NCBI GenBank assembly: GCA_038150265.1
Contig: JAYOTF010000058.1
Span: forward strand, 1 to 13,784
Direction of reading: 5' to 3'
Length of the DNA: 13,784 nucleotides
DNA from: Deltaproteobacteria bacterium
Lineage (GTDB): Bacteria > SAR324 > NAC60-12
Shown here: one piece after another, positions 224-11,459 of the stretch
Position numbering within the stretch: position 1 is the first letter of the stretch
Layout: each line of letters begins with the position of its first letter
Made by a program: the position numbers and the translations under genes
Notes under the pieces: model-generated
Told to the model about the DNA's origin: nothing
The model's database searches: none
What the model saw: only the letters and a program-made list of their open reading frames with translations

Positions 224-1033
224 CTAGCTCCGCTGCTGTTGTTCCCGAATCAGGGCCGCGACCTCAAGGGGGTCATTGGTGAAGATCCACTCGACTCCCC
301 GGTTGAGCTCCCGGAACAGGGCATTTTTTGATTTAGGATATCCTGTACCCATGAACTGATCGGCCGTGAGGTGCCGCTGCACCACCTCGGTTCCAATGAG
401 GAGGTAATGCCCCCCAATTCCGCCAAATCCTTGTTCCAGGGAGGTGTTACTAAATTCCGCAACATTGAAAAACGCGACCAGCAGAAAGCAGGATTTCGGC
501 GCAAAGGTCACCAACCGTTCCAGAGCCGGATCAAGGAGCAGGATGTGAAAATCCCGGCCGGGCTCCCAGCCGGTCAGCAGGTCCCCCAGAATGTGATTCT
601 GACGTTCCAGTTCCGGATACGGCTCTTCCTTCACCTCAATCATCAGGTGGGCCCGATCCCGGCTGAGCTGAATGACCTCCTCCAGAGTGGGAATGAGTGG
701 AAACCGTTCCTTCAGCTCAACAAGGGAAAACGAACTCAGCAGGCGAGGCTCGCCAAACATCCGGAGCAGATCGGCATCATGAAAGACCACCGGCGCCAGA
801 TCCTGAGTCCACCGGACGTCCAGTTCCAGACCCGTGACCTCCGGAGCCTCCAGGGCACGCTGAAAGGCGGCAAGCGTGTTTTCAGGCAGCCCCTGAAATC
901 CGTGCGCCCCACGGTGCGCAATGATCCGGCACCGGCTCAGCACGTCAGGCGGCGGCGTGGGTTGAGGCCAGTACTTGAAGAATGTGTCGCATCCGGCCAT
1001 CAGCAGATGCTCCAACCAGGGAGGAATGTGCAT
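224..1033 (-). CDS. Glycerophosphodiester phosphodiesterase family protein (GDPD, UgpQ/GlpQ-like)
   Basis: Motifs IIAHRG, PENTLAAF, GLELDV, VVFHD, IPTLEE, MIEVK and IFTNDP. ATG overlaps the tex stop (TGATG at 1035-1031). Confidence 0.93.
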   Translation of the reverse strand: MHIPPWLEHLLMAGCDTFFKYWPQPTPPPDVLSRCRIIAHRGAHGFQGLPENTLAAFQRALEAPEVTGLELDVRWTQDLAPVVFHDADLLRMFGEPRLLSSFSLVELKERFPLIPTLEEVIQLSRDRAHLMIEVKEEPYPELERQNHILGDLLTGWEPGRDFHILLLDPALERLVTFAPKSCFLLVAFFNVAEFSNTSLEQGFGGIGGHYLLIGTEVVQRHLTADQFMGTGYPKSKNALFRELNRGVEWIFTNDPLEVAALIREQQQRS

Positions 1034-3366
1034 CAGTGTTTGTTGAATTTTGCCATCAGTTGAGCCATGTCTTTTTGGAAGTCTCCACTCGCCAATGGCT
1101 TTTCACGCGGTTGGGACTCCTTCGGGCCCGACGGGCGATTCTTGCGGCGCTCAGGCTTGCCCGATTTTCGGTTGCCGTCACGTGGCTTGGGGTCAGCCTG
1201 AGGAGTGCTCCGGAGCGAAAGCGAGATGCGTTTGCGAGCCTCATCCACTTCCAGCACCCACGCCTGCACCGCCTGCCCCACCGTCACGGCTTCCATCGGA
1301 TCCTTCACAAATTTGTCCGAAAGCTGGGAGATGTGGGCCAGGCCATCCTGATGCACCCCAATGTCAATAAAGGCTCCGAAGTGTGTGATATTCGTCACGA
1401 TCCCATTGAGGCGCATGCCGGGCTTGAGGTCCTTGACCTCCTGGATCGAGTCATCAAACTCCACCTGCTGGTGATCCTTCCGAGGGTCACGCCCCGGTTT
1501 TTTGAGCTCCTGCAGAATGTCTGACACCGTAAAGGCTCCAGCCTCGGCATACTGGGTCGGGTCAATCCGTCCCACCGCTGCTTCATGCCCCACCAGTTGT
1601 TCCAGCGTCAGCTCATGGTCCTGCGCCATCCGCTCCACGAGGGCATAGTTTTCCGGGTGCACCGCCGAGCGGTCCAACGGGTTTCCGGCTTCGGGAATCC
1701 GGAGGAAGCCCGCGGCCTGCTCAAAGGTCTTCGGCCCCAGTCCACTCACCGTCAGCAGGTCCTGCCGCGACTGAAAGCCCCCCTTTTCGTTGCGGTGGGA
1801 CACAATCCGCTTGGCCAGGGTGCTGCTGATTCCAGAGACGTACCCCAGCAACGACGCTGACGCCCGGTTGAGGTCCACCCCCACAAAGTTCACACATGAC
1901 TCCACGGTCCGGTCAAGCGACTGCTTCAGGCGCGTTTGGTTGACATCGTGCTGATACTGTCCCACCCCAATGGACTTCGGATCAATCTTCACCAACTCGG
2001 CCAGGGGGTCCTGATAACGACGGGCAATCGAGACCGCGCCCCGGACGGTCAGGTCCAGGTCGGGAAACTCTTCGCGGGCAATCGACGAGGCGGAGTAAAC
2101 CGAGGCGCCTGATTCGTTGACCACCAGGGCTTGCGCCGTGATGCCTTCCGCCTGAAAAAACTCCCGGACGAACTGATGCACCTCCCGGGAAGCCGTCCCG
2201 TTTCCGACCGCGACAATTTCCGCATGGAAGCGCTGCAGCAGATCCCGGAGCACGGTGCGGGAGCCCTCCACCTCTTTTTTGGGCTCGACGGGATAAATGA
2301 CGCCGTGGTCCAGGAAGCGTCCCGTTTCGTCAATCACGACCCACTTGGTTCCCGTCCGGAACCCGGGATCCAGCCCAATCACCACCTTGGCGCCGCCCGG
2401 AGGCTGGAGGAGCAGCTGGCGGAGGTTCCGTCCAAACATGTCGATCGACACCTCATCCGCCTGAAGCTTCAGGTCCACCCGCACATCGGTTTCCAGCGTC
2501 GGGGCCAGCAGGCGTTGCCAGGCATCGGCAATGACCCGGCTGGCGTGTTCGGCAAACGCCTCGGCAAAGGGGGGCAGGTGCTGACGAAGGAGGCCATGCG
2601 CCCGCTCTTCCTCCAGCTCAATGCGCATCCGGAGGATTCCGTCTTTTTCCCCTCGGCGAATCGCCAGGTACCGGTGTGGGGCAATCGCGGAAACCTTTTC
2701 GGAAAAATCGTAATACGCTTCAAACTTGCTGGGCTTGCCCTCATGGTCGCTGGCCACCTGAGACAGCACCCGGCCGTCCTTGTGCAGGCGCTCCCGGAGG
2801 GCATTGCGCAGATCCGCAATCTCGGCCAGCCGCTCGGCCCAGATGTCGCGGGCTCCCTGAAGCGCATCGTCTTCCGAGAGGGGCGCCTCCTGCCCTTCAT
2901 TCAGGGCCTGCAGCCACTGCTGAACGTCACTCAGCGTGGTCCCCGCAACGGCCAGCAGGTCCGCAAGGGGCTCCAGGCCCCTGTCCCGGGCAATCGTGGC
3001 ACGGGTCCGGCGTTTGGGTTTGTAGGGAAGGTAGAGGTCTTCAAGCTTCTGCTTGGTCTCTGCCTGCTGAATCCGCTGCTCCAGCTCCGGGGTCAGCTTT
3101 TCCTGCTCCCGGATGCTCTTGAGGATGGTCTGCCGGCGCTCATCCAGGTCACGCAGGTACTGAAACCGGTCGGCCAGGTTGGCAATTTCGACTTCATCCA
3201 GCCCCCCGGTGGCTTCCTTGCGGTAACGGGCAATGAAGGGGATGGTGTTGTCCGCCAGAAGCAGCTTCAGGGTCTCGCGAATCTGGTCCGGACGGTGTCC
3301 CGTTTCCTGATGCAGTTGGGGAATCCAGACGGTCACGTCCGGAGCAGAGGAGGCTAGTTCTTCCAT
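1033..3366 (-). CDS. tex: Tex family RNA-binding transcriptional accessory protein (YqgF, HhH and S1 domains)
   Basis: Motifs TIPFIARYRKEATGGLDE, LEDLYLPYKPKRRTRA, GLDPGFRTGTK, VGNGTASRE, VNESGASVYSAS, KSIGVGQYQHDV, and a C-terminal S1 (NITHFGAFIDIGVHQDGLAHISQL). Start is ATG 3366 or upstream TTG 3411. Confidence 0.97.
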   Translation of the reverse strand: MEELASSAPDVTVWIPQLHQETGHRPDQIRETLKLLLADNTIPFIARYRKEATGGLDEVEIANLADRFQYLRDLDERRQTILKSIREQEKLTPELEQRIQQAETKQKLEDLYLPYKPKRRTRATIARDRGLEPLADLLAVAGTTLSDVQQWLQALNEGQEAPLSEDDALQGARDIWAERLAEIADLRNALRERLHKDGRVLSQVASDHEGKPSKFEAYYDFSEKVSAIAPHRYLAIRRGEKDGILRMRIELEEERAHGLLRQHLPPFAEAFAEHASRVIADAWQRLLAPTLETDVRVDLKLQADEVSIDMFGRNLRQLLLQPPGGAKVVIGLDPGFRTGTKWVVIDETGRFLDHGVIYPVEPKKEVEGSRTVLRDLLQRFHAEIVAVGNGTASREVHQFVREFFQAEGITAQALVVNESGASVYSASSIAREEFPDLDLTVRGAVSIARRYQDPLAELVKIDPKSIGVGQYQHDVNQTRLKQSLDRTVESCVNFVGVDLNRASASLLGYVSGISSTLAKRIVSHRNEKGGFQSRQDLLTVSGLGPKTFEQAAGFLRIPEAGNPLDRSAVHPENYALVERMAQDHELTLEQLVGHEAAVGRIDPTQYAEAGAFTVSDILQELKKPGRDPRKDHQQVEFDDSIQEVKDLKPGMRLNGIVTNITHFGAFIDIGVHQDGLAHISQLSDKFVKDPMEAVTVGQAVQAWVLEVDEARKRISLSLRSTPQADPKPRDGNRKSGKPERRKNRPSGPKESQPREKPLASGDFQKDMAQLMAKFNKH

Positions 3367-3421
3367 GAATTCCGTGAGGGTGGGGTCAATCAACAGGCTC
3401 AATGCGCCCAAAAGAGAAGGC

Positions 3422-5665
3422 TTACCAGACTTTCTGGACCACCTTCAAGGCGCGGAGGCCTTCGCAGATTTTTCGATACTGCACCCACGTGACTGGGGCG
3501 AGCCGAATGCGGTGGTAGGCTTGTTCTTCTGTGGTGACCGAGACCTGGGCATCGCGGATGCTGGCTTCCGCGTCCTTGATCACTTTCACCACCCGGTAGA
3601 GGATTCCGGGGCCTTCGCTGGTGTGGAGGTGGAGGAGGTGCTCACGGCGCTCATCTTTCGGAAGGTCCCAGATCACCTGAACCCGGGTTTGCCGAGAGGC
3701 TTCAACTTCCGAGCAACTGAGCTGATGAACCTCGATCTCATTCTGGTCATTCAGCAGCCCAATGACTCGGTCGCCAGGCATGGGGGCGCAGCATTCCTGC
3801 AACCGCACCATCGGGTCGTCCCAGCTTTGAATCCGGAAGTACGATTCCGCTCCGCCAAAGACGGAGGCAAAGCGTCCGGATCGGAGCATCTCCCGGACCC
3901 GTCCCATCCGTTCGGGACCAATGAGGCCGTGCTTCTTCATGAACTCCCGGGGGGAGCGCTTCTGCATGCCGACTTCCTGCAGGAAGCGTTCGGTGCTGAG
4001 CCGCTCCTGCTCCAGGGCTTCCAGCACCTTGGGGTCTTCCAGCCACTCCTCAATGTGGAGCTGAAATTTCTGCAGCACCCCCTTGAGGTGATCAAAGCCG
4101 AGGCGCCGCATCCGCTGAGCATTCTGCTGCCCCACCGACCGGCGAATCTGCAGTTGGCTCTTGGCCAGGAAGGCATACTCCAGCCACTCGCGTGCTGGAC
4201 GAACCGCAGGATCCGTCAGGATCCGGACCCGTTCGCCGTGGAAGAGCTGGCGATCCCGGGGCACCCGCTGAGCGCCACTGGCGCGTCCGACGCTTTCCAC
4301 CATGGCCCCTGTGCACTGGTTGCCCAACTCGGTGTGGATGCTGTAGGCAAAGTCCAGCACCGTGGCCCCCTTCGGGAGCGCATAGACGTCTCCTTTCGGA
4401 CTGAACACCTGAACCTGGTCCTGCTGCATGGTCTTCAGGACATCGGTCATGCGCAGGTGCTCCTCACCGGCCACCTGGTCCAGCTGATCCAGGTAGGTCC
4501 GGTAGTAGTCGGCAAGCTGAGAAGGCGTGCCCTGCCAGTAGGCCATCACGCCGTTGCGGTTCCCTTCCTTCATCCGGGGGGTGACGATCTCGATGGAGAC
4601 CCGCTCCCCATCCAGCAGAATCAGGGTCTGAAGCCCCTGGTGGCCGTTCCACATGGGGTTGCTGATGTAGTCCCGAATCTGCAAGGGAATGGCGCTGAAC
4701 TCGGTGTGCAGGATGCCGAGGGCCTGGTAACACGCCTGAGGCTTGTCCACCACAATCAGGAATCCCTTGAGGACCTGATCCAGCGGAAAGCCCGGGTAGA
4801 CGTGGTCGGCCACCTCCACCAAAACCGGCTCCACCGTCTGAAGCTGCAGCTGCTCCTGAGTCAGCAGGTCCTGCAGCTGAGCCCGCATGGCGTCCACCCG
4901 CTCCTTGCGCTCGTCCCAAAGCTCCTGGAGCCGCTTCTGCGTATTCCGGTAACGGACTGGATAGAGGTAGCGGAAGCACAGCTCCGAGTGCTCCCGGCTC
5001 AGGTCGCGCAGCCCCAGCCGCTGGGCCAGGGGGACGTACACGCCCAGGGTTTCCCGGCTGATGCGACGGCGCTTGTGGTGCGGCATCGCCTCCATGTCTC
5101 GCATGTTGTCGAGCCGGTCAAAGAGCTTGATGAACAGGGTCCGGACGTCCCGGGTCATCGACTGCAGCATCTTCCGGTAAGTCGCTTCCTGGTGGCTCCG
5201 GGTCTTCGGACCATCCGGATTCTGGATCTTGGTCAGCCCATCGACAATGGCGGCGTACCAGGGACCGTACTGCTCCCGGACGTAATCCTTGGTCATTGGG
5301 GTGTCTTCAATCGCATCATGCAGCAGGGCTGCAATCACCGTCGAGGCATCCAGGCCGGCCTGGCAGATGGAAAGCGCCACCCGCAGCGGGTGCACGACCA
5401 CCGGCTGTCCGGACTTGCGACGCTGGTGGGCATGAAAACGGGAGATGTCTTCAATGGCGCGGTTGAGCAGCCGCACCTCTTCCTCGTTGCCGTGACGCTT
5501 GACGTAGTCCCGGATCTGACGCTTGAGCTTGGAAATGAGCTGCACGTCTTCGGTGCTCACCCCTTCGTCATCCAGCACCACCTCAGGGTGCATGGGCGCC
5601 GAGGGCACCAGGGTTTCGTCAGCAGTCATCAAAGCAGGATTCCCCATGCCTTCCCAATCAATCAA
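3422..5665 (-). CDS. spoT: Long RelA/SpoT homologue (HD, degenerate SYNTH, TGS, ZFD, ACT); predicted hydrolase-only (p)ppGpp enzyme
   Basis: HD motifs HAHQRRKSGQP..HP, ALLHDAIEDT and IKLFDRLDNMR; TGS VFSPKGDVYALPKGATVLDFAYSIHTELG; ZFD LQECCAPMPGD..HQLSC; C-terminal ACT-like segment. Start uncertain (TTG 5665, ATG 5647 or ATG 5629). Confidence 0.92.
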   Translation of the reverse strand: MIDWEGMGNPALMTADETLVPSAPMHPEVVLDDEGVSTEDVQLISKLKRQIRDYVKRHGNEEEVRLLNRAIEDISRFHAHQRRKSGQPVVVHPLRVALSICQAGLDASTVIAALLHDAIEDTPMTKDYVREQYGPWYAAIVDGLTKIQNPDGPKTRSHQEATYRKMLQSMTRDVRTLFIKLFDRLDNMRDMEAMPHHKRRRISRETLGVYVPLAQRLGLRDLSREHSELCFRYLYPVRYRNTQKRLQELWDERKERVDAMRAQLQDLLTQEQLQLQTVEPVLVEVADHVYPGFPLDQVLKGFLIVVDKPQACYQALGILHTEFSAIPLQIRDYISNPMWNGHQGLQTLILLDGERVSIEIVTPRMKEGNRNGVMAYWQGTPSQLADYYRTYLDQLDQVAGEEHLRMTDVLKTMQQDQVQVFSPKGDVYALPKGATVLDFAYSIHTELGNQCTGAMVESVGRASGAQRVPRDRQLFHGERVRILTDPAVRPAREWLEYAFLAKSQLQIRRSVGQQNAQRMRRLGFDHLKGVLQKFQLHIEEWLEDPKVLEALEQERLSTERFLQEVGMQKRSPREFMKKHGLIGPERMGRVREMLRSGRFASVFGGAESYFRIQSWDDPMVRLQECCAPMPGDRVIGLLNDQNEIEVHQLSCSEVEASRQTRVQVIWDLPKDERREHLLHLHTSEGPGILYRVVKVIKDAEASIRDAQVSVTTEEQAYHRIRLAPVTWVQYRKICEGLRALKVVQKVW

Positions 5666-5668
5666 TCA

Positions 5669-6313
5669 TTACTGGGGTTGAAAGCTGCGGAACTCGCCGA
5701 ATCCGGTGCAGTACCGCAACGGCGTGTCCGCCCGAACGGGCTTCCAGCCCACTTCAAAATTTGCATCCCACAGGAGCTGCCGGATGTCCCGAAACAGCTC
5801 AAAGCTGTCGGGATGCACCCAGAAAAAGAAATAGGTTGTTTCTGGACGGTAGCTTCCCAGCATCACGTCCATTGCCCCTCCGGAGCGATTGAACTCGTGC
5901 CACCAGCTTCCGGAGTCACGGTTGGGCAGGAAGTCGAGGCAGTGGGCATTGCCCGAGAGCGTCATGAGGTTCACCTCATAATTGCCCATGTCCAGGCGTT
6001 CCGGAACCTGCCCCGGCCCCGTGACTTCCTCCCGGATGCGCCGGTAAACGGCTGCTCGGTCAAAGAGCACCACCTGGTTGTCCCGGAGGAGCATCAGGCG
6101 GCTGGCCTTCTGAGAGTAGTGCGACCAGGGGATGACGATCTTTTGCTGCTGCTCCACCTCCCGGGAGTCCGGGGAGCTGACCTCCTGTGGCGCCAGCGTC
6201 AGGAGGGCCACAAACACCGAGAGGATCACCAGGATGCCAACGCTGTTGGAGACAATATCCACAAGGGAATCCAGCCCCGCGTTGGAAGGACCCCCAGGAG
6301 GCCGGCGTCTCAT
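5669..6313 (-). CDS. Single-pass membrane protein, ExbD/TolR/AglS-like (uncharacterised)
   Basis: Basic N-terminus MRRR, then LDSLVDIVSNSVGILVILSVFVALLTL (hydrophobic helix with Asp at its start). The soluble domain ends FFFWVHPDSFELFRDIRQLLWDANFEVGWKP. ATGA overlap with the upstream TPR gene. The CDS is well supported; the family is an inference. Confidence 0.6.
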   Translation of the reverse strand: MRRRPPGGPSNAGLDSLVDIVSNSVGILVILSVFVALLTLAPQEVSSPDSREVEQQQKIVIPWSHYSQKASRLMLLRDNQVVLFDRAAVYRRIREEVTGPGQVPERLDMGNYEVNLMTLSGNAHCLDFLPNRDSGSWWHEFNRSGGAMDVMLGSYRPETTYFFFWVHPDSFELFRDIRQLLWDANFEVGWKPVRADTPLRYCTGFGEFRSFQPQ

Positions 6314-8151
6314 CCCTGCTTCTCGTCACTGCTGCTGTCGTCGTCTCCCGACCGCTGGCGGGCCTCCCACGCCTCGCGCTGCTCATGATACCACGCGGTC
6401 AGCTTTTCCGCCAAATCCTGTCGCTTCAGCTTCTGACACACATCGACCATGCAGCGGTAGAGCTCCTGCCGGGGCTCAATCATCACCGCCGCTTCATAAA
6501 TCCGGAGGGCCTCAATGAGCTGTCCGGCCTTTTCGTGATGCTCCGCCCGTGCCAGGTGGTCCTGAATTTCCTTGTCCCGCTCACGCTGCTCCATCTTCTT
6601 GAGCATGTGCTTGAGGTTCGAGACCCGTTGGTCGTTGTTGACCATGTCATGGACCATGATGGCCTTGCGGACCAGTTCCTTCGCCGGGGCAATGCCAATG
6701 GCCTGGTCCAGCAACTGCCCCGCCTTGTCCAGCTCCTTGCGCTTGATCGCATCATCCGACTGCATGACAAAGATGTCCCGCAGTTCCTTGAGCGCCCGCT
6801 TGGCCGTGCTGTTGCCCCGGTCCATCCGGACGGCCTTGAGGAAGGTTTCCTTGGCCGCATCATACTGCTTGTCGGCCAACTGCAGGCGTCCCAGGCCGAC
6901 CAGCAGCTCCAGGTCCTCCAGCTCATCGGCAATTGGCCCCAGGGTTTCCAGGGCCTTCTTGCTCTTCCCCTCGGCAATGTACTGGCGCCCCTCTTCCACA
7001 AAACGGTCAATCGAGTACTCGCCCTTGGAGCGCTCCAGCAGCTTGGCGGCCAGGAAGAAGTACACCCGGGACTGCTGAATCTTGCGCTGCTTGCGGAGCA
7101 GGATCCCCATGTTGACGTTGCTGTAGCGATGGTTGGGGTTGCGCTTCAGCATGCCATTGAGGGCTTCTTCCGCCTTCTCCAGGTTGCCCATCTGGGCCAG
7201 CGAGCACACGAGGAAGCACCGGTAGTCGAGGTTGTTCGGCTCCTTGCGCAGCAGCCGCTCAAAGATCCGGCGGGCCACCTTCGGCGTGTTCTCTTCCATG
7301 CTGTAGACGGCCAGGTCGATCAGCAGTTGCAGCTGCGCCTCGCTCCCGTCCTCCAGGCGCTCCAGGGCATAGGTCAGCAGCTCTTCCGGATTGATTCGGT
7401 ACTCCTCCACTTCCGACTCCACCTTGGGAGGGGGTGGCGGCGGCGGCGGGGGAGGGGGCGGAGGAGGCTCCTCGACATCAATCTCGGCCTCCTTCCTGGG
7501 GGCATCCGGAAACAGCAAATCGTCCGGAAATGCTTCCTCCTCTTCCAACTCATCGAGGGGAGAAGGCGTCCGCTTGGCAGCCACTTCAGCAGCGGCCTGC
7601 TCTTCCTCCTCGGCCGCCAGCAAACTGGAGAGCGAGTCCTTGCGCGGGTGCAGCTTCTCGTGCAGTTCCTTGAGGCGCTCCACGCCATCAGGCGAGCCCG
7701 CCAGCTTGTAGCTCGTCAACTGCTCCAGCGGCTTCACGGCGCTTACGGCACTGGCGTCATAGAGGTCCACTTTCGCAATCGTGGCAGCCAGGTTGTAGGC
7801 CGGAAACTCGTCTCGCGGGTTCTGCTTGAGGCAGTGCAGGTAGAGGTTCTTCGCCTTGTTCGGCTCTCCCTGCTTGCGGTAGGCATTCCCCAGGAAGTTG
7901 GCCAGCTCCAGGTTCTTCTCATCGCGTGCCAGCAGGTTCACCCCCAGCGCCACCATGGCCGACGGATCCCCTGAGGACTGCCCATAAATGTCCGTCACCA
8001 CCGGCATGGCAACTTCCTGGTTGAGGTCCAACGCCTTGTTGAACTCCACCATTGCCCGATCGTAAAATTTACTCTCCAGTAGAGATTTCGCTCTCGTCAG
8101 GATCGCGTTGACCTCGTCGTTGGTATCACCCGAGAGCAGTCTATCCAGCAC
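6310..8151 (-). CDS. Tetratricopeptide repeat protein with central acidic/poly-proline linker
   Basis: TPR signatures such as LANFLGNAYRKQGEPNKAKNLYLHCLKQNP, SNVNMGILLRKQRKIQQS and LLVGLGRLQLADKQYDAAKETFLKAVRMDRGN. GTG start preceded by AAGGA. Confidence 0.88.
   Translation of the reverse strand: MLDRLLSGDTNDEVNAILTRAKSLLESKFYDRAMVEFNKALDLNQEVAMPVVTDIYGQSSGDPSAMVALGVNLLARDEKNLELANFLGNAYRKQGEPNKAKNLYLHCLKQNPRDEFPAYNLAATIAKVDLYDASAVSAVKPLEQLTSYKLAGSPDGVERLKELHEKLHPRKDSLSSLLAAEEEEQAAAEVAAKRTPSPLDELEEEEAFPDDLLFPDAPRKEAEIDVEEPPPPPPPPPPPPPPKVESEVEEYRINPEELLTYALERLEDGSEAQLQLLIDLAVYSMEENTPKVARRIFERLLRKEPNNLDYRCFLVCSLAQMGNLEKAEEALNGMLKRNPNHRYSNVNMGILLRKQRKIQQSRVYFFLAAKLLERSKGEYSIDRFVEEGRQYIAEGKSKKALETLGPIADELEDLELLVGLGRLQLADKQYDAAKETFLKAVRMDRGNSTAKRALKELRDIFVMQSDDAIKRKELDKAGQLLDQAIGIAPAKELVRKAIMVHDMVNNDQRVSNLKHMLKKMEQRERDKEIQDHLARAEHHEKAGQLIEALRIYEAAVMIEPRQELYRCMVDVCQKLKRQDLAEKLTAWYHEQREAWEARQRSGDDDSSSDEKQG
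7426..7467 (-). repeat. Poly-proline tract (14 consecutive Pro codons); G-rich on the plus strand
   Basis: Plus strand reads GGG AGG GGG TGG CGG CGG CGG CGG GGG AGG GGG CGG AGG AGG, i.e. 14 CCN codons on the minus strand using all four Pro codons. Confidence 0.95.
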
Positions 8152-8197: not shown

Positions 8198-8213
8198 AGG
8201 CACTGTCCTTGCT
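8198..8213 (+). promoter_or_regulatory. Candidate sigma-54 (-24/-12) promoter facing the fliN-like/fliM-like pair
   Basis: AGGCACTGTCCTTGCT versus consensus TGGCAC-N5-TTGC(A/T), with exact GG-N10-GC spacing, in the 303-bp divergent intergenic region. Confidence 0.45.
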
Positions 8214-8338: not shown

Positions 8339-8454
8339 TGCCGAAACGCTAAGAATGCGCAACTTGCGGACCCTCTCTCAAACTCCTGAAGCTGTCTTTT
8401 CTTCAGCCCCCTGTGTGCAAGGAAGGCATTCCCAGAGGATTTTCCAAGGAAACC

Positions 8455-10500
8455 ATGCCCGCTGACGAATTTGATCTGAACGACCTCGACGATCTTTCTG
8501 CCGACGATTTTGACGGGCAAGAACTTCCGGATGCCCAATTTCCGGGCGAAGGAGACGAAATCGAGTCGTTCGACTTCAGCGCGGACGATGACGACTTCCT
8601 GGAGGACGCCCCCGCAGAAGAAGAAGACGCGGGCGATTCCGGACTCGGCTTTGAAGGGTTTGAAGCCGCCCTGGCTGAAAGTGAAGGCACCCCAGAACCG
8701 GAGCCCCCGGAGCCTGAGGCGGAAGAGGTTGAAGAAATTGATGATTTTGGAGACGAAGAAGAGGGCATCCCCGGCATGGCCCTCACCGAAGAGGGCGATG
8801 AGGACCTCGAAGCCTTTGCAGCCGATGCTGAACTCTCCGATTTTGCTGAAGAAAGCGGGCTGGACGACCTTCCCGATGAAGCAGGCCTGAGCTTTGATGT
8901 CACCGGAGACGATGACGACCTGAACTCCGGAGGCGTCTCGGCCAAGCCCCTGAAGCCTGCAGCGGCCGCCGCCCCGGCCGAAGAAGTCCCCGCAGAAGAA
9001 GAAGCACCGGTTGCCGAGCTTCCTCCGGAAGCCCCTGACGAGGCGGTCCTCAGCGAGTCCGAGGAAATCGAGGGGTTGGACGACCTCGGTGACATGGGCG
9101 ACCTCAGCGACCTTGAGGAGCTGGGAGACGCCGCTGAAGAAGCTCCTGCGCTGGAGCCTGTTGCTGAAGACCCGGGGTCAGGCGATCTTCCGGAGGCAGA
9201 AGCTGCCGATTTTGACCTTGAGGAAGCCGACGGCTCTGGACTGGACGACCTTCCGGAAGCCGAAGTTGCAGACTTTGAGCTTGAGGAACCCGAACCCATT
9301 GACCTGGAAGAGGAGCCCCTTGAAGTCCCGGAGGAACCCGCTTCAGAGGAAGCCGCCGCTGTTGAGGGGGTGGACGACCTGGAGCCCGCGGAGGAAGCCT
9401 TCTTTGAGGAGCCCACGGATGAGCTGATGGACGCAGAGCCTGCGGCGCCTGCTGACCTGGGCGAGTTTGATGACGAAGACGAGCAGCTCATCGAAATCCA
9501 TGCGGAAGAGGAGCCCCTCGAAGACGAGGCCGCAGAGCTGGAGCTGACCGACGCGGAGCCGGAGCTTCCGGACGAGGAAGAGGCCTTCTCGGAGGAAGAC
9601 CCCCTTGCCTTTGAAGGAGCCTCCCTGGCTGAAAGCGACGTTCCTCCTGATGCGCCGGAGTGGGAAGACCTGGAGACGCTTCCAGACGAGGAATCCGAGC
9701 TGCCCGAGCTGCCGGAAGAGGAGCCCGAGCCGGCGGATGCTTCCGGAAGTGAGCTGGAAGACCTCGAAGCCCTGGAAAATCCTCCTGACCTGCATGTGGA
9801 ATCGGCTGACCTTGAGGACCTTGAGGAAGGCGCCCCTGACCTGCCTCTCTCACTTGATCAGGAAGAGTCCAGCCTGGAAGACCTTCCGGATGCATTTGAA
9901 GGCGAAGACCCCTTTGCCGAGGAGGCTCCCGACCTGGACGCTCCGGAGGCCATTTCTCTTGAGGAGCCCGAGCTGACAGAGCCTGAGCCTCATGAGCTGG
10001 AGGATCCGCCCCTGGAGGCCAGCGCTGAAGAGGAAGCCGCCGCCCAGGATTCAGAGCAGCCCCCTGAGCCTGAACTTGAACCCCCGCCTGAGGCCGACCT
10101 TTCGGCCCTGGCAGGCGCCGCCAGCATTGTCGCCGTCGCCGGAATGGCGGTCTCGGCTCGTGCCCCGTTGGACCCGGAAGCCCTGCGCTACGGAGGTCCT
10201 TCCCAACACCCCAACGTTCCAGTGGAGAACCAACCTATGTCTCAACCCAACTCCCCTGCAGCCTCTGGCTCCGAGGTGTTGCTGAACTTCCAGCACGAAG
10301 TCGTGGTGGAGGTGGCCCGAACCAAACTTACGGGTGAAGAGATCACCCAGATCACCTACGGCAGCGTGATTGAGCTGGACAAGCTGGCAGGTGAGCCGGT
10401 CGAGCTTGTGCTGGACGGCAAGACCATCGCACACGCCGAGGTGGTCCTCATCAACAAAGAGCGCCTTGGTGTGCGCATCATTGGCATCATGCAGGACTGA
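8455..10500 (+). CDS. FliN/SpoA (FliMN_C)-domain protein with a very long acidic, Pro-rich low-complexity N-terminus (681 aa)
   Basis: C-terminal VVVEVARTKLTGEEITQITYGSVIELDKLAGEPVELVLDGKTIAHAEVVLINKERLGVRII matches the FliN pattern (GSVIELDKLAGEP..IAxGEVVVV..GVRI). ATG 8455 has AAGGA upstream. Residues 1-548 are dominated by D/E/P/A/L. Confidence 0.88.
   Translation: MPADEFDLNDLDDLSADDFDGQELPDAQFPGEGDEIESFDFSADDDDFLEDAPAEEEDAGDSGLGFEGFEAALAESEGTPEPEPPEPEAEEVEEIDDFGDEEEGIPGMALTEEGDEDLEAFAADAELSDFAEESGLDDLPDEAGLSFDVTGDDDDLNSGGVSAKPLKPAAAAAPAEEVPAEEEAPVAELPPEAPDEAVLSESEEIEGLDDLGDMGDLSDLEELGDAAEEAPALEPVAEDPGSGDLPEAEAADFDLEEADGSGLDDLPEAEVADFELEEPEPIDLEEEPLEVPEEPASEEAAAVEGVDDLEPAEEAFFEEPTDELMDAEPAAPADLGEFDDEDEQLIEIHAEEEPLEDEAAELELTDAEPELPDEEEAFSEEDPLAFEGASLAESDVPPDAPEWEDLETLPDEESELPELPEEEPEPADASGSELEDLEALENPPDLHVESADLEDLEEGAPDLPLSLDQEESSLEDLPDAFEGEDPFAEEAPDLDAPEAISLEEPELTEPEPHELEDPPLEASAEEEAAAQDSEQPPEPELEPPPEADLSALAGAASIVAVAGMAVSARAPLDPEALRYGGPSQHPNVPVENQPMSQPNSPAASGSEVLLNFQHEVVVEVARTKLTGEEITQITYGSVIELDKLAGEPVELVLDGKTIAHAEVVLINKERLGVRIIGIMQD
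9184..9287 (+). repeat. Degenerate 63-nt (21-aa) internal tandem duplication in the acidic region
   Basis: DLPEAEAADFDLEE (9184) and DLPEAEVADFELEE (9247), DNA offset 63 nt. A related SGLDDLP motif occurs near 8855. Confidence 0.7.
10224..10239 (+). promoter_or_regulatory. Candidate internal ribosome-binding site and in-frame ATG for a short FliN isoform (10237-10500, 87 aa)
   Basis: GGAG (10224-10227), then the A/C-rich spacer AACCAACCT (9 nt), then ATG (10237), in frame and 13 codons before the FliN domain. Confidence 0.45.
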
Positions 10501-10502
10501 TT

Positions 10503-11459
10503 ATGCTTCATCATGACACCAGCGAGCTCGAGGTCGAGCCCTACGAACTGGTTGAGGCGGAATACGAAACCGGCCGGTTTCCGTGGATGGATGTGGTCTC
10601 TCGGCGCTGGGCCGCCCTGTTGGAGACCACGCTCTATGAGCGCCTGGGGCTGCTCTTTGAGATCGAAGCGGAGCAGGTGGTGTGGATGCGCTTTGCCAAC
10701 CTGATTCAGCACGTCCGGGCTCAGCCCATTTACATTGTGGACATCAACCAGCTGGCCAAGGGGCTGCTCATCCTCGACAACGCCTTTGTGCAGTCCACCA
10801 TGCAGTCTCTGCTTCCGGAAGCAGGAGAGCTGGTGCTGGAAGACTTCATGATGCAGCACCATGCGGCCCTGCAGGACCTGCTGAATGCGGCAGCCAAGGA
10901 CTTTGAAAACAGCTGGACCCACATCAGTGACTTCCAGATGCGCTTCAAGCGGGTCACCACCAGCCGTCACCGCGCCCGGGTGCTGCTGCCCCATGAGCGC
11001 TGCCTGGTCCTCCGGCTCAAGTTTCAGGCTCAGGACACCGCCACCGCTTCCGAGGTCATCCTGGCGCTGCCGTTTACGGCCATGCACAAGACGCTCAACC
11101 GCCTGGAGCCGCTCCGGGTGTTGGCCCCCGAGTCGGTGGAGCCCTACTATGAAAGCGTGGGGCACCGCATGATGAACCTGCTGGAGCAGACCCATCACAA
11201 CCTGGTCAGTGAGTTGGGAAAGGTGGACTTGCGGCAGACCCGAGGGGCCCTCAAGGTGGGGCAGGTGCTACCGCTTCAGAACAACGGGGGCAAGGTGACG
11301 GTTCGGCTCAATGGACGCCCCACCCTGATTGGCAAGATGGGGCAGTCCAACAGCCGCTACGCCGTTCAGATCCTTGGTTGGGAGCCGGCGCAGAAGAGTT
11401 CGTCGCTCAAGCAGCAAGACCAGGCGTTTCAGCCCATTGACCTTCCGGAAGGCCAGTAG
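10503..11459 (+). CDS. fliM: Divergent FliM-like protein (CheC-like middle domain plus C-terminal SpoA domain)
   Basis: VEPYEL..GRFPWMDVVSRRWAALLETTL..MRFANLI aligns with FliM VRPYDF..GRMPTLEIINERFAR..MKFGEF; KDFENSW and VILALPF also fit. C-terminal SpoA LVSELG..LKVGQVLPL..VTVRLNGRPTLIGKMGQSNSRYAVQI. AGGA lies 7 nt upstream and the ATG is 2 nt after the fliN-like stop. Confidence 0.8.
   Translation: MLHHDTSELEVEPYELVEAEYETGRFPWMDVVSRRWAALLETTLYERLGLLFEIEAEQVVWMRFANLIQHVRAQPIYIVDINQLAKGLLILDNAFVQSTMQSLLPEAGELVLEDFMMQHHAALQDLLNAAAKDFENSWTHISDFQMRFKRVTTSRHRARVLLPHERCLVLRLKFQAQDTATASEVILALPFTAMHKTLNRLEPLRVLAPESVEPYYESVGHRMMNLLEQTHHNLVSELGKVDLRQTRGALKVGQVLPLQNNGGKVTVRLNGRPTLIGKMGQSNSRYAVQILGWEPAQKSSSLKQQDQAFQPIDLPEGQ

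Follow-up and report, generated by a model that had tools for sequence, protein, structure and literature searches.

A conserved SAR324 gene pair of FliN-like and FliM-like proteins, with a long polyacidic arm, as a candidate accessory module of the flagellar motor

The closest known relatives of the gene pair reported here are FliM and FliN, the canonical switch proteins known from the Salmonella C-ring (8umd, 8wiw, 9n49). An LSQxEIDALL-type consensus is the peptide by which FliM binds CheY-P, and the GGXG loop of the FliM middle domain contacts FliG, as known from FliM-FliG crystal structure work. The pair lies on contig JAYOTF010000058.1 (C58 in our numbering), a stretch of 13,784 nt that was analysed in full and is hereafter called the window. 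This contig belongs to a 3.39-Mb assembly, 97.8% complete (GCA_038150265.1, here G000), of SAR324, which is among the most widespread uncultured groups of ocean bacteria and for which, to our knowledge, no motility apparatus has been described. The two genes encode a FliN-like protein (FliNL) and a FliM-like protein (FliML), and they are a real, conserved and previously undescribed variant of FliM/FliN, of interest for motor diversity and for an abundant uncultured phylum. The data speak for an elaborated flagellar motor rather than for a machine of a wholly new category. Like the canonical proteins, the pair has the two-domain fold of FliM, a FliN-type SpoA end and a modelled SpoA-SpoA heterodimer. 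Unlike them, it has a reversed gene order with the fliN-like gene first, has neither CheY-binding peptide nor GGXG loop, and stays below the NCBIfam equivalog cut-offs, FliML scoring 62.5 bits where the FliM model TIGR01397 requires 219.6 and FliNL 59.3 bits (residues 608-680) where the FliN domain model TIGR02480 requires 84.05. A polyacidic arm of about 600 amino acids (aa) is found in FliNL and not in canonical FliN, and canonical copies coexist with the pair in the same genome. A literature search that did not extend to supplements turned up neither an account of a pair of this type nor one of the composition of the SAR324 motor.

Rings that combine FliY with FliN and FliM, as in Campylobacter jejuni and Helicobacter pylori, have an extra SpoA protein at the ring base (PMC6946799; PMC8809382), which is where we propose to place the pair. 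The elaborated ring of C. jejuni acts beyond rotation, in flagellar number, in division site and in the localisation of FlhG, to which the C-ring contributes, and degenerate EIDAL motifs occur sporadically in FliN/FliY (PMC6946799). FliY has a CheC-like middle domain where FliNL has a presumably disordered acidic arm instead: FliNL has no Pfam match to CheC or CheX, and it matches the FliY model NF005995 through its SpoA end only (residues 591-680, 61.9 bits against a cut-off of 218). Unlike organisms with FliY rings, SAR324 adds a motif-less FliM-like protein as well, and the family is restricted to SAR324. Acidic cytosolic repeats are also a feature of the polar hub protein FimV. HubP of Vibrio likewise resembles FliNL in having a long Asp/Glu-rich cytosolic region, the highly acidic modules of which bind partners, among them ParA-like ATPases and flagellar regulators (PMC8789113). 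HubP has a peptidoglycan-binding LysM anchor, a transmembrane helix and a C-terminal TPR/FimV region; none of these was found in FliNL, whose only Pfam match is SpoA and which would have to anchor through that domain. The likeness is one of composition only, and no homology was found or is claimed. SctQ proteins (SpaO/YscQ/Spa33) resemble the pair as SpoA proteins that assemble via SpoA-SpoA pairs. They differ from it in that FliNL reaches 33 bits against the cut-off of 100.8 of the SctQ model TIGR02551, and in that G000 has a single FHIPEP (FlhA/SctV) gene and therefore no second type III system for the pair to serve. A secretion sorting platform, one of three roles offered by the first-pass annotation of the window, is consequently unlikely.

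The features of the pair, all on the forward strand, are the following.

8199..8212, +: sigma-54-type −24/−12 promoter-like element, GGCAC-N5-TTGC, 257 nt 5′ of the fliN-like start
8455..10500, +: fliN-like gene (FliNL), 681 aa plus stop; open reading frame (ORF), translation and a Pfam match to SpoA only
8455..10257, +: polyacidic low-complexity arm of FliNL, presumably disordered, residues 1 to about 601; from composition
10282..10491, +: SpoA (FliN C-terminal) domain of FliNL; Pfam PF01052, 52.9-57.7 bits
10493..10502, +: junction, with AGGA, stop TGA at 10498-10500 and TT, before the ATG at 10503; from the sequence
10503..11459, +: fliM-like gene (FliML), 318 aa plus stop; translation, Pfam FliM and SpoA matches
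10572..11081, +: FliM middle (CheC-fold) domain of FliML, without GGXG; Pfam PF02154, residues 24-193, pLDDT about 90
11247..11378, +: FliML SpoA domain, then a conserved C-terminal tail; Pfam PF01052, 37.9-40.5 bits, and alignment

The ORF in the fliN-like frame extends from 8413 to 10500 (+) and the second from 10503 to 11459 (+). The likely start of FliNL is the ATG at 8455, which is preceded by AAGGAAA and opens an N-terminus (MPADEFDL...) matching that of the orthologue in a sister species (MPADELDL..., locus L028). Only 2 nt separate the FliNL stop from the FliML ATG and an AGGA lies 6-9 nt 5′ of that ATG, which suggests that the two genes may be translationally coupled. Coordinates and architecture thus agree with the first-pass annotation, which had described a coupled FliN-like then FliM-like pair with a 2-nt gap. 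Public annotation labels the pair just “FliM/FliN family flagellar motor switch protein”.

FliML matches the Pfam domains FliM (PF02154, 29.1 bits against a cut-off of 27, residues 24-193) and FliMN_C (PF01052, 37.9 bits, residues 249-292). Its AlphaFold2 model has a mean pLDDT of 74, rising to about 90 across the middle domain, and a Foldseek comparison retrieved FliM of the Salmonella C-ring as solved by cryo-EM (8umd_C, E 5.6e-19), together with crystal structures of FliM middle domains (target TM up to 0.84, 4gc8_A), with CheC and CheX ranking lower. By profile and model, FliML has the FliM fold, that is, a middle domain and a C-terminal SpoA domain. The CheY-P-binding N-terminal peptide is missing in FliML and in all 35 orthologues. 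The FliML N-terminus, MLHHDTSELEVEPYE, starts only about 12-23 residues ahead of the middle domain, and the canonical FliM proteins of the same genome begin with MGSVLSQGEVDALL and (M)NPKFSNQEVSTLL. The GGXG motif is also missing: the window FliML reads LLPE-AGE where the canonical copies carry FGGTG and FGGSG, the motif is lost in 33 of the 35 orthologues, and the equivalent stretch is the most variable, gapped part of a 17-sequence FliML alignment. GGxG is kept by two members of the sister family (f2) only, which fits descent of FliML from a normal FliM. Because both motifs are lost, FliML is, by its sequence, not a normal switch subunit. Its remaining sequence is well conserved, with 16 invariant columns in the 17-sequence alignment and blocks that are invariant or nearly so (GRF.WMD..RRW, QPIY, DFEKSW and FRAR...ERC); in the C-terminal tail, Phe309 is invariant and F-x-x-I-x-W-P occurs in most orthologues.

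The only Pfam match of FliNL is FliMN_C/SpoA (PF01052, residues 610-679, 52.9 bits against a cut-off of 23.8), a domain with 12 invariant columns among 17 orthologues. Residues 1-601 comprise 37% Asp+Glu, 1% Lys+Arg and 12% Pro, for a net charge of −218, and contain many short motifs of acidic and hydrophobic residues, among them DEFDLNDLDDL, GLDDL and ADFDLEE. The pattern [DE]-hydrophobic-[DE]-x-hydrophobic was observed 11 times in the window FliNL where 3.2 were expected (z 4.8), and words of alternating acidic and hydrophobic residues (DLDLD...) are more frequent in many orthologues than in shuffles of matched composition (z up to 12.9). A large tandem-repeat array was ruled out as the basis of the arm, which holds one 63-nt repeat in two copies and three tiny repeats. 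Among 30 FliNL orthologues the arm measures 149-601 aa, with 20-45% Asp+Glu, 0-7% Lys+Arg and a charge of −39 to −246. It evolves fast, being 65% identical between G000 and its sister species G002 where the SpoA domain is 100% identical, with a dN/dS of 0.165 over its alignable part (dS near saturation). The sequence of the arm thus diverges rapidly while its composition is preserved. Between arm and SpoA domain lies an Ala/Gly/Val-rich hydrophobic stretch, LSALAGAASIVAVAGMAVSA (FliNL residues 547-569, window 10093-10161), and similar stretches are present in some orthologues (L037, L040), not in all; it may be a linker or a segment that weakly binds a membrane or a partner. Precomputed annotation assigns Pfam PF28396.1 to many FliN-like orthologues (P0184-P0259) and to unrelated FliY/FliM proteins; this family is not listed for the closest orthologues of the window FliNL.

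When modelled together, the SpoA domains of FliNL and FliML gave a complex with a score of 0.63, and the best of three controls scored 0.00; 116 of 157 solved complexes attain this mark, as do 2 of 215 mismatched pairs. Contacts agree at 93% or more between runs, partner pLDDT is at least 75, and the predicted FliML interface covers residues 227-292. FliM-FliN is a solved textbook pair, so that this pass may reflect likeness to known structures and does not amount to proof. The FliNL SpoA domain, which lies above the Pfam gathering score and is predicted to pair with that of FliML, is accordingly placed in the SpoA superfamily. Retention of SpoA by both partners and the formation of a SpoA-SpoA complex had both been proposed beforehand; the domains are present, and the heterodimer is supported at the level of the model.

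G000 has nine matches to SpoA and three to the FliM domain, along with three FliG and one FlhA. Besides the pair, these include two canonical FliM, which pass TIGR01397 with 336.2 and 242.7 bits, and five other FliN, the remaining FliN frames being about 104-192 aa long. A second, canonical fliG/fliM/fliN set, which the first-pass annotation had advised looking for, therefore exists elsewhere in the genome; the pair is a paralogous set and not the only fliM/fliN of a flagellated bacterium. The same annotation had called the pair an orphan. It is alone in the window, since a Pfam scan of 12 ORFs found no other flagellar or type III secretion gene there, as had been claimed. This state is normal in G000, where the canonical fliM and fliN genes are likewise scattered singly amid housekeeping genes and only one fliN lies in a fliL-fliN-fliO-fliP cluster. 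The flagellar gene set of G000 is unusually expanded and dispersed for a 3.4-Mb genome (contigs C6, C13, C20, C11, C5, C23, C42, C41, C66 and C4), and includes 16-18 flagellin-N matches, of which a single contig carries seven.

A search of 41 related genomes with FliML returned orthologue-level matches in 31 (28-91% identity, E≤3.4e-27), and canonical FliM gave only weak cross-matches at about 20% identity. An acidic SpoA protein is encoded directly 5′ of the FliM-like gene in 20 of 20, 7 of 8 and, in family f7, 8 of 8 loci, the eighth locus of the second set being a canonical fliM locus fetched through a cross-match. In all, the two genes are adjacent, with both frames intact, at each of the 35 FliM-like loci retrieved, drawn from three families of the phylum; within the pair, synteny in relatives, one of the checks proposed, is thus complete. 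Against 1.84 billion representative sequences, a FliM-like profile built from 17 proteins yielded 3845 matches at E≤1e-3 and only 30 at E≤1e-30, below which canonical FliM begin at about 120 bits. One orthologue cluster alone comprises 411 sequences from at least 93 contigs, and the public names carried by orthologues are “SAR324 cluster bacterium”, “Candidatus Lambdaproteobacteria bacterium” and “Deltaproteobacteria bacterium”. Other searches were less productive: one of genome contigs for related loci returned a single near-identical locus, a word-indexed protein search returned 3 matches, and a protein atlas returned generic FliM-like clusters only.

In a quick maximum-likelihood tree of 64 rows, midpoint-rooted, the FliM-like proteins form a monophyletic clade of 32 rows (SH-aLRT 99) on a stem of length 1.04. 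All canonical FliM, including the two of G000, which group together (SH-aLRT 99), lie across the root, so that the tree, another proposed check, separates the FliM-like clade from every canonical FliM. Comparison with G002 gave a dN/dS of 0.068 for FliML (dS 0.75) and of 0 for the FliNL SpoA domain (dN 0, dS 0.26), which reached 0.044 against G001. Far from being unconserved and under relaxed selection, which would have refuted the proposal of a new role, the pair is conserved and under purifying selection. The sequences indicate that it is an old, constrained, SAR324-restricted paralogue set of the canonical switch genes.

We scanned 88 genomes of the phylum for the FliM-like profile, FlhA and FliG-C. 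The FliM-like protein was called present at a best E≤1e-41. No canonical FliM did better than 1e-31, and a genome with 1.8e-35 was taken to lack the FliM-like protein. By this measure it is found in 60 of 88 genomes, and 58 of these 60 carriers are flagellar-marked. Of the 81 genomes with FlhA or FliG, 58 carry the pair. Both markers are missing from the other seven. Among these, all five that consist of a single contig (G007, G027, G032, G064 and G065) are devoid of the pair; G073 is just 68% complete and its genus mates are flagellate; G016 is discussed below. With 58 of 81 marked genomes carrying the pair and none of the five single-contig unmarked ones doing so, and with motA-motB adjoining it in some f2 loci, the suggestion that the pair had been repurposed away from the flagellum does not fit its distribution and is borne out only in part. 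A dedicated FliG paralogue was rejected as a partner: FliG copy number (1-5) does not track the pair, and three near-complete genomes with one FliG each (G081, G083 and G084) carry it, so that no special paralogue is needed.

Upstream of the pair, the GGCAC-N5-TTGC element is the sole match to this pattern in the window, where 0.23 are expected and at least one match occurs in 37 of 200 shuffles. The relaxed pattern [T/A]GG-N10-GC[A/T] occurs on the sense strand within 300 nt 5′ of the fliN-like gene at 23 of 28 loci, compared with 6 of 28 on the antisense strand and a mean of 5.4 (maximum 11) over 300 shuffles, and an extended form, TGGACTGATTTTAGCA, is common to several distant genera. A conserved sigma-54 promoter therefore probably drives the pair. 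Such promoters are common for early flagellar genes of polar flagellates and are not specific to those genes. In G000, scattered matches to the loose sigma-54 pattern are found 5′ of the other switch genes. RNA evidence comes from one metatranscriptome run, which contains two 151-nt contigs identical to the window, at 10396-10546, spanning the junction, and at 10548-10698. The run covers 7% of sampled words and contributes nothing across the remaining 27 of 30 bins, which is insufficient for a statement on expression level or habitat, and we regard even the junction-spanning contig as weak evidence because DNA carry-over into the RNA library is possible.

The explanation we favour, at roughly even odds, is that the pair forms an accessory module, specific to this lineage, which belongs to the base of the flagellar C-ring and exposes a polyanionic arm. 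Of the three roles first suggested, an accessory ring is thus the one that fits best. The SpoA domains of FliML and FliNL would form a heterodimer in the manner of FliM-C with FliN, and we infer that this heterodimer docks on, or intercalates in, the SpoA spiral that canonical FliM and FliN form at the bottom of the C-ring. FliML would neither bridge to FliG nor receive the chemotaxis signal, since it has no GGXG loop and no CheY-binding peptide. FliNL would hang a disordered, polyanionic and motif-rich arm of 150-600 residues in the cytoplasm beneath the motor. This arm could be a multivalent tether or hub whose partners are positively charged or amphipathic; we infer CheY-like regulators, FlhG/MinD/ParA-type ATPases and export chaperones as candidates. 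Its functional analogues would be the acidic cytosolic repeats of HubP, or the degenerate EIDAL motifs of some FliN/FliY. Expression would proceed from the sigma-54 promoter. Whatever its exact placement, the pair represents the most conserved part of the motor, duplicated, stripped of its signalling and torque-coupling motifs, provided with a polyacidic arm of several hundred residues and retained in that form throughout the history of the phylum. Most known motor additions (H and T rings, disks, collar) are periplasmic; a module located under the C-ring would be an addition of a new type, on the cytoplasmic face of the motor, and would amount to a natural disordered, highly charged brush on a rotating machine.

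Several observations weigh against a place in the motor. The loss of the CheY and FliG contact motifs described above is one. The pair is missing from 23 of the 81 flagellar-marked genomes, which makes it dispensable for flagella, though many of these genomes are incomplete. The genomes compared are related and not independent, and the non-flagellate ones represent about three or four separate losses. Motor genes adjoin the pair at only 4 of the 35 loci, the motA-motB sites in f2, and the commonest neighbour is gidB, divergent from the pair at 8 of 8 f7 loci. No sigma-28 (FliA, class III) promoter is present: using a matrix trained on six TAAAGTTT-N11-GCCGATAA promoters of G000 flagellin genes, the best score within 350 nt upstream at 28 loci did not exceed 11.7, compared with 31.9-38.6 for the training sites. 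Finally, G016 (91% complete, 30 contigs) has an intact pair as its only SpoA genes, and no FlhA, FliG, FliP, MotA-like or canonical FliM/FliN match was found there.

G016 also keeps alive the alternative that was closest to the first-pass interpretation, a SpoA scaffold independent of the flagellum, which we consider unlikely. FliML and FliNL would have left the motor to build a cytoplasmic or polar assembly of their own, the arm of which would organise other proteins, such as chromosome-segregation, division or signalling ATPases. The loss of both contact motifs is in keeping with such a scaffold, as are the position of the pair outside a flagellar cluster at every locus inspected and the constancy of gidB beside it in f7. 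SAR324 genomes can moreover hold SpoA proteins without a type III secretion system. The closed genomes G027 and G032 (1.6-1.7 Mb; L065-L070) encode four each and have no FliG, FliP, FlhA or MotA-like match; these are two small FliN-like proteins, one FliM-like protein with an LSDxEL..LL N-terminus and a GGAG motif, and a repeat-rich protein of 1001-1014 aa with a C-terminal SpoA domain, adjoining dnaB. The giant proteins were rejected as FliNL orthologues, their SpoA domains matching other FliN copies, and the SpoA proteins of these two genomes are not orthologues of the pair, which counts against the scaffold. So do the linkage with motAB in f2, the loss of the pair from all five single-contig non-flagellate genomes and the flagellar markers in 58 of 60 carriers. 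In G016 itself, the terminal branch of FliML measures 0.49 compared with 0.24 in its sister. FliML shares 56.5% identity with the sister protein, about 8 points less than a neighbouring housekeeping protein, at 72.3%, would lead one to expect; the corresponding values in another genus pair are 58.2% and 65.5%. Constraint was judged here from identity ratios and branch lengths, since synonymous sites would be saturated at 72% housekeeping identity to the nearest relative. The acidic arm of G016 is the shortest found (149 aa), and no sigma-54-type element was found 5′ of its pair. Together, branch length, identity, short arm and missing element look like relaxed constraint. We therefore favour the view that G016 is a transitional or exceptional case and that the role of the pair is linked to the flagellum and usually lost after the flagellum is. 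Were the pair to work apart from the flagellum, it would constitute a SpoA/FliM-fold assembly independent of type III secretion, and we know of no other.

A related and equally doubtful proposal, again prompted by G016, is that FliML-FliNL is a SpoA-anchored polyanionic hub able to work without a type III apparatus and organising ParA/MinD-like ATPases or response regulators at the pole. If so, the SpoA/FliM fold would be a general cytoplasmic scaffold in SAR324, and a HubP-like function would have arisen from motor parts.

Alternatively, the pair may be a negative regulator or decoy, to which we assign a similarly low likelihood. Its heterodimer would compete with canonical FliM-FliN for SpoA contacts. 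Under conditions relayed by a sigma-54 activator, the heterodimer would cap the C-ring or remodel it, or else keep FliN, FliH or CheY sequestered, and would in effect act as a brake, as a clutch or in setting flagellar number and not as a structural part. FliML keeps the SpoA interface while having no FliG or CheY contacts, as a dominant-negative subunit would, the pair is dispensable in 23 of 81 flagellar-marked genomes, and the conserved sigma-54-type element implies conditional expression. The acidic-hydrophobic motifs of FliNL presumably resemble the EIDAL-type peptides that CheY and FlhG bind. Against a decoy stands the FliML middle domain, which is the best conserved and best modelled part of the protein (pLDDT about 90; RRW, QPIY, DFEKSW and ERC invariant) and argues for a specific partner of its own, not for a mere cap; nor did Pfam detect a PilZ, receiver or similar regulator domain in either protein. 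A decaying or functionless fliM-fliN duplicate, to which the low FliM and FliN model scores and the low-complexity N-terminal region might have pointed, is refuted by frames that are intact at all 35 FliM-like loci in three families, by dN/dS values of 0.068 for FliML and 0-0.044 for the FliNL SpoA domain and by 16 and 12 invariant columns, and we give it next to no credence.

The genes around the pair offer no evident partner. By Pfam, the neighbours in the window are a GDPD phosphodiesterase, Tex, a RelA/SpoT-family enzyme, a TPR protein, a GCS2 ligase and an M50 peptidase, in addition to a 214-aa ORF. Three of them lie upstream of the pair.

1033-3411, −: Tex
3422-5665, −: RelA/SpoT-family (p)ppGpp enzyme
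6310-8151, −: 613-aa TPR protein

Synteny of these three with the pair does not extend beyond the nearest genera. On the same ground the TPR protein, the 214-aa ORF, RelA/SpoT and GDPD, to one side of the pair, and GCS2 and M50, to the other, were rejected as partners. A divergent neighbour of about 1130 aa, present in five genera, has a weak match to GlnD-type nucleotidyltransferases; it was also set aside and is treated as housekeeping because a copy 50% identical to it lies elsewhere in G000 (C9). The long plus-strand ORFs at 3365-6388 and 6187-7974 have no family match and are antisense shadows.

In the sister family f2, motA-motB lies just 5′ of the pair at 4 of 9 loci, and at L045 and L059 on the same strand with short gaps. 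G000 itself has, on contig C12 (28403-30566), a motA followed by two tandem motB paralogues, which share 49% and 46% identity with one f2 MotB. At the f7 loci L072-L079, and at L046, L057 and L063 of f2, the gene divergent from the fliN-like gene is gidB, which encodes a 16S rRNA methyltransferase; in two f1 loci, gidA lies near the pair (L040), as do gidB, rnpA and yidC (L062). These genes (gidB, gidA, rnpA-yidC) are origin-proximal in many bacteria, and the ancestral position of the pair may have been in the gidB neighbourhood.

Two further arrangements of SpoA genes were observed in the phylum. In G017, L064:7452-8930 (−) encodes a 492-aa protein with FliM, SpoA and FliG middle/N-terminal domains by Pfam, which appears to be a natural FliM-FliG fusion; a fliN is next downstream, and NACHT/STAND NTPase genes adjoin it. 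A gene of the endonuclease/exonuclease/phosphatase (EEP) family adjoins SpoA genes in several genomes, at the following sites.

L054:7956-9540 (contig C1 of G000): EEP-SpoA gene site
L067:4393-6204: EEP-SpoA gene site
L069:4327-6216: EEP-SpoA gene site
L037:10457-11233: EEP-SpoA gene site

The EEP gene is divergent from a 182-aa FliN in G000 and lies directly 5′ of the FliM-like gene in G027 and G032, and the EEP proteins of G000 and G027 are 46% identical.

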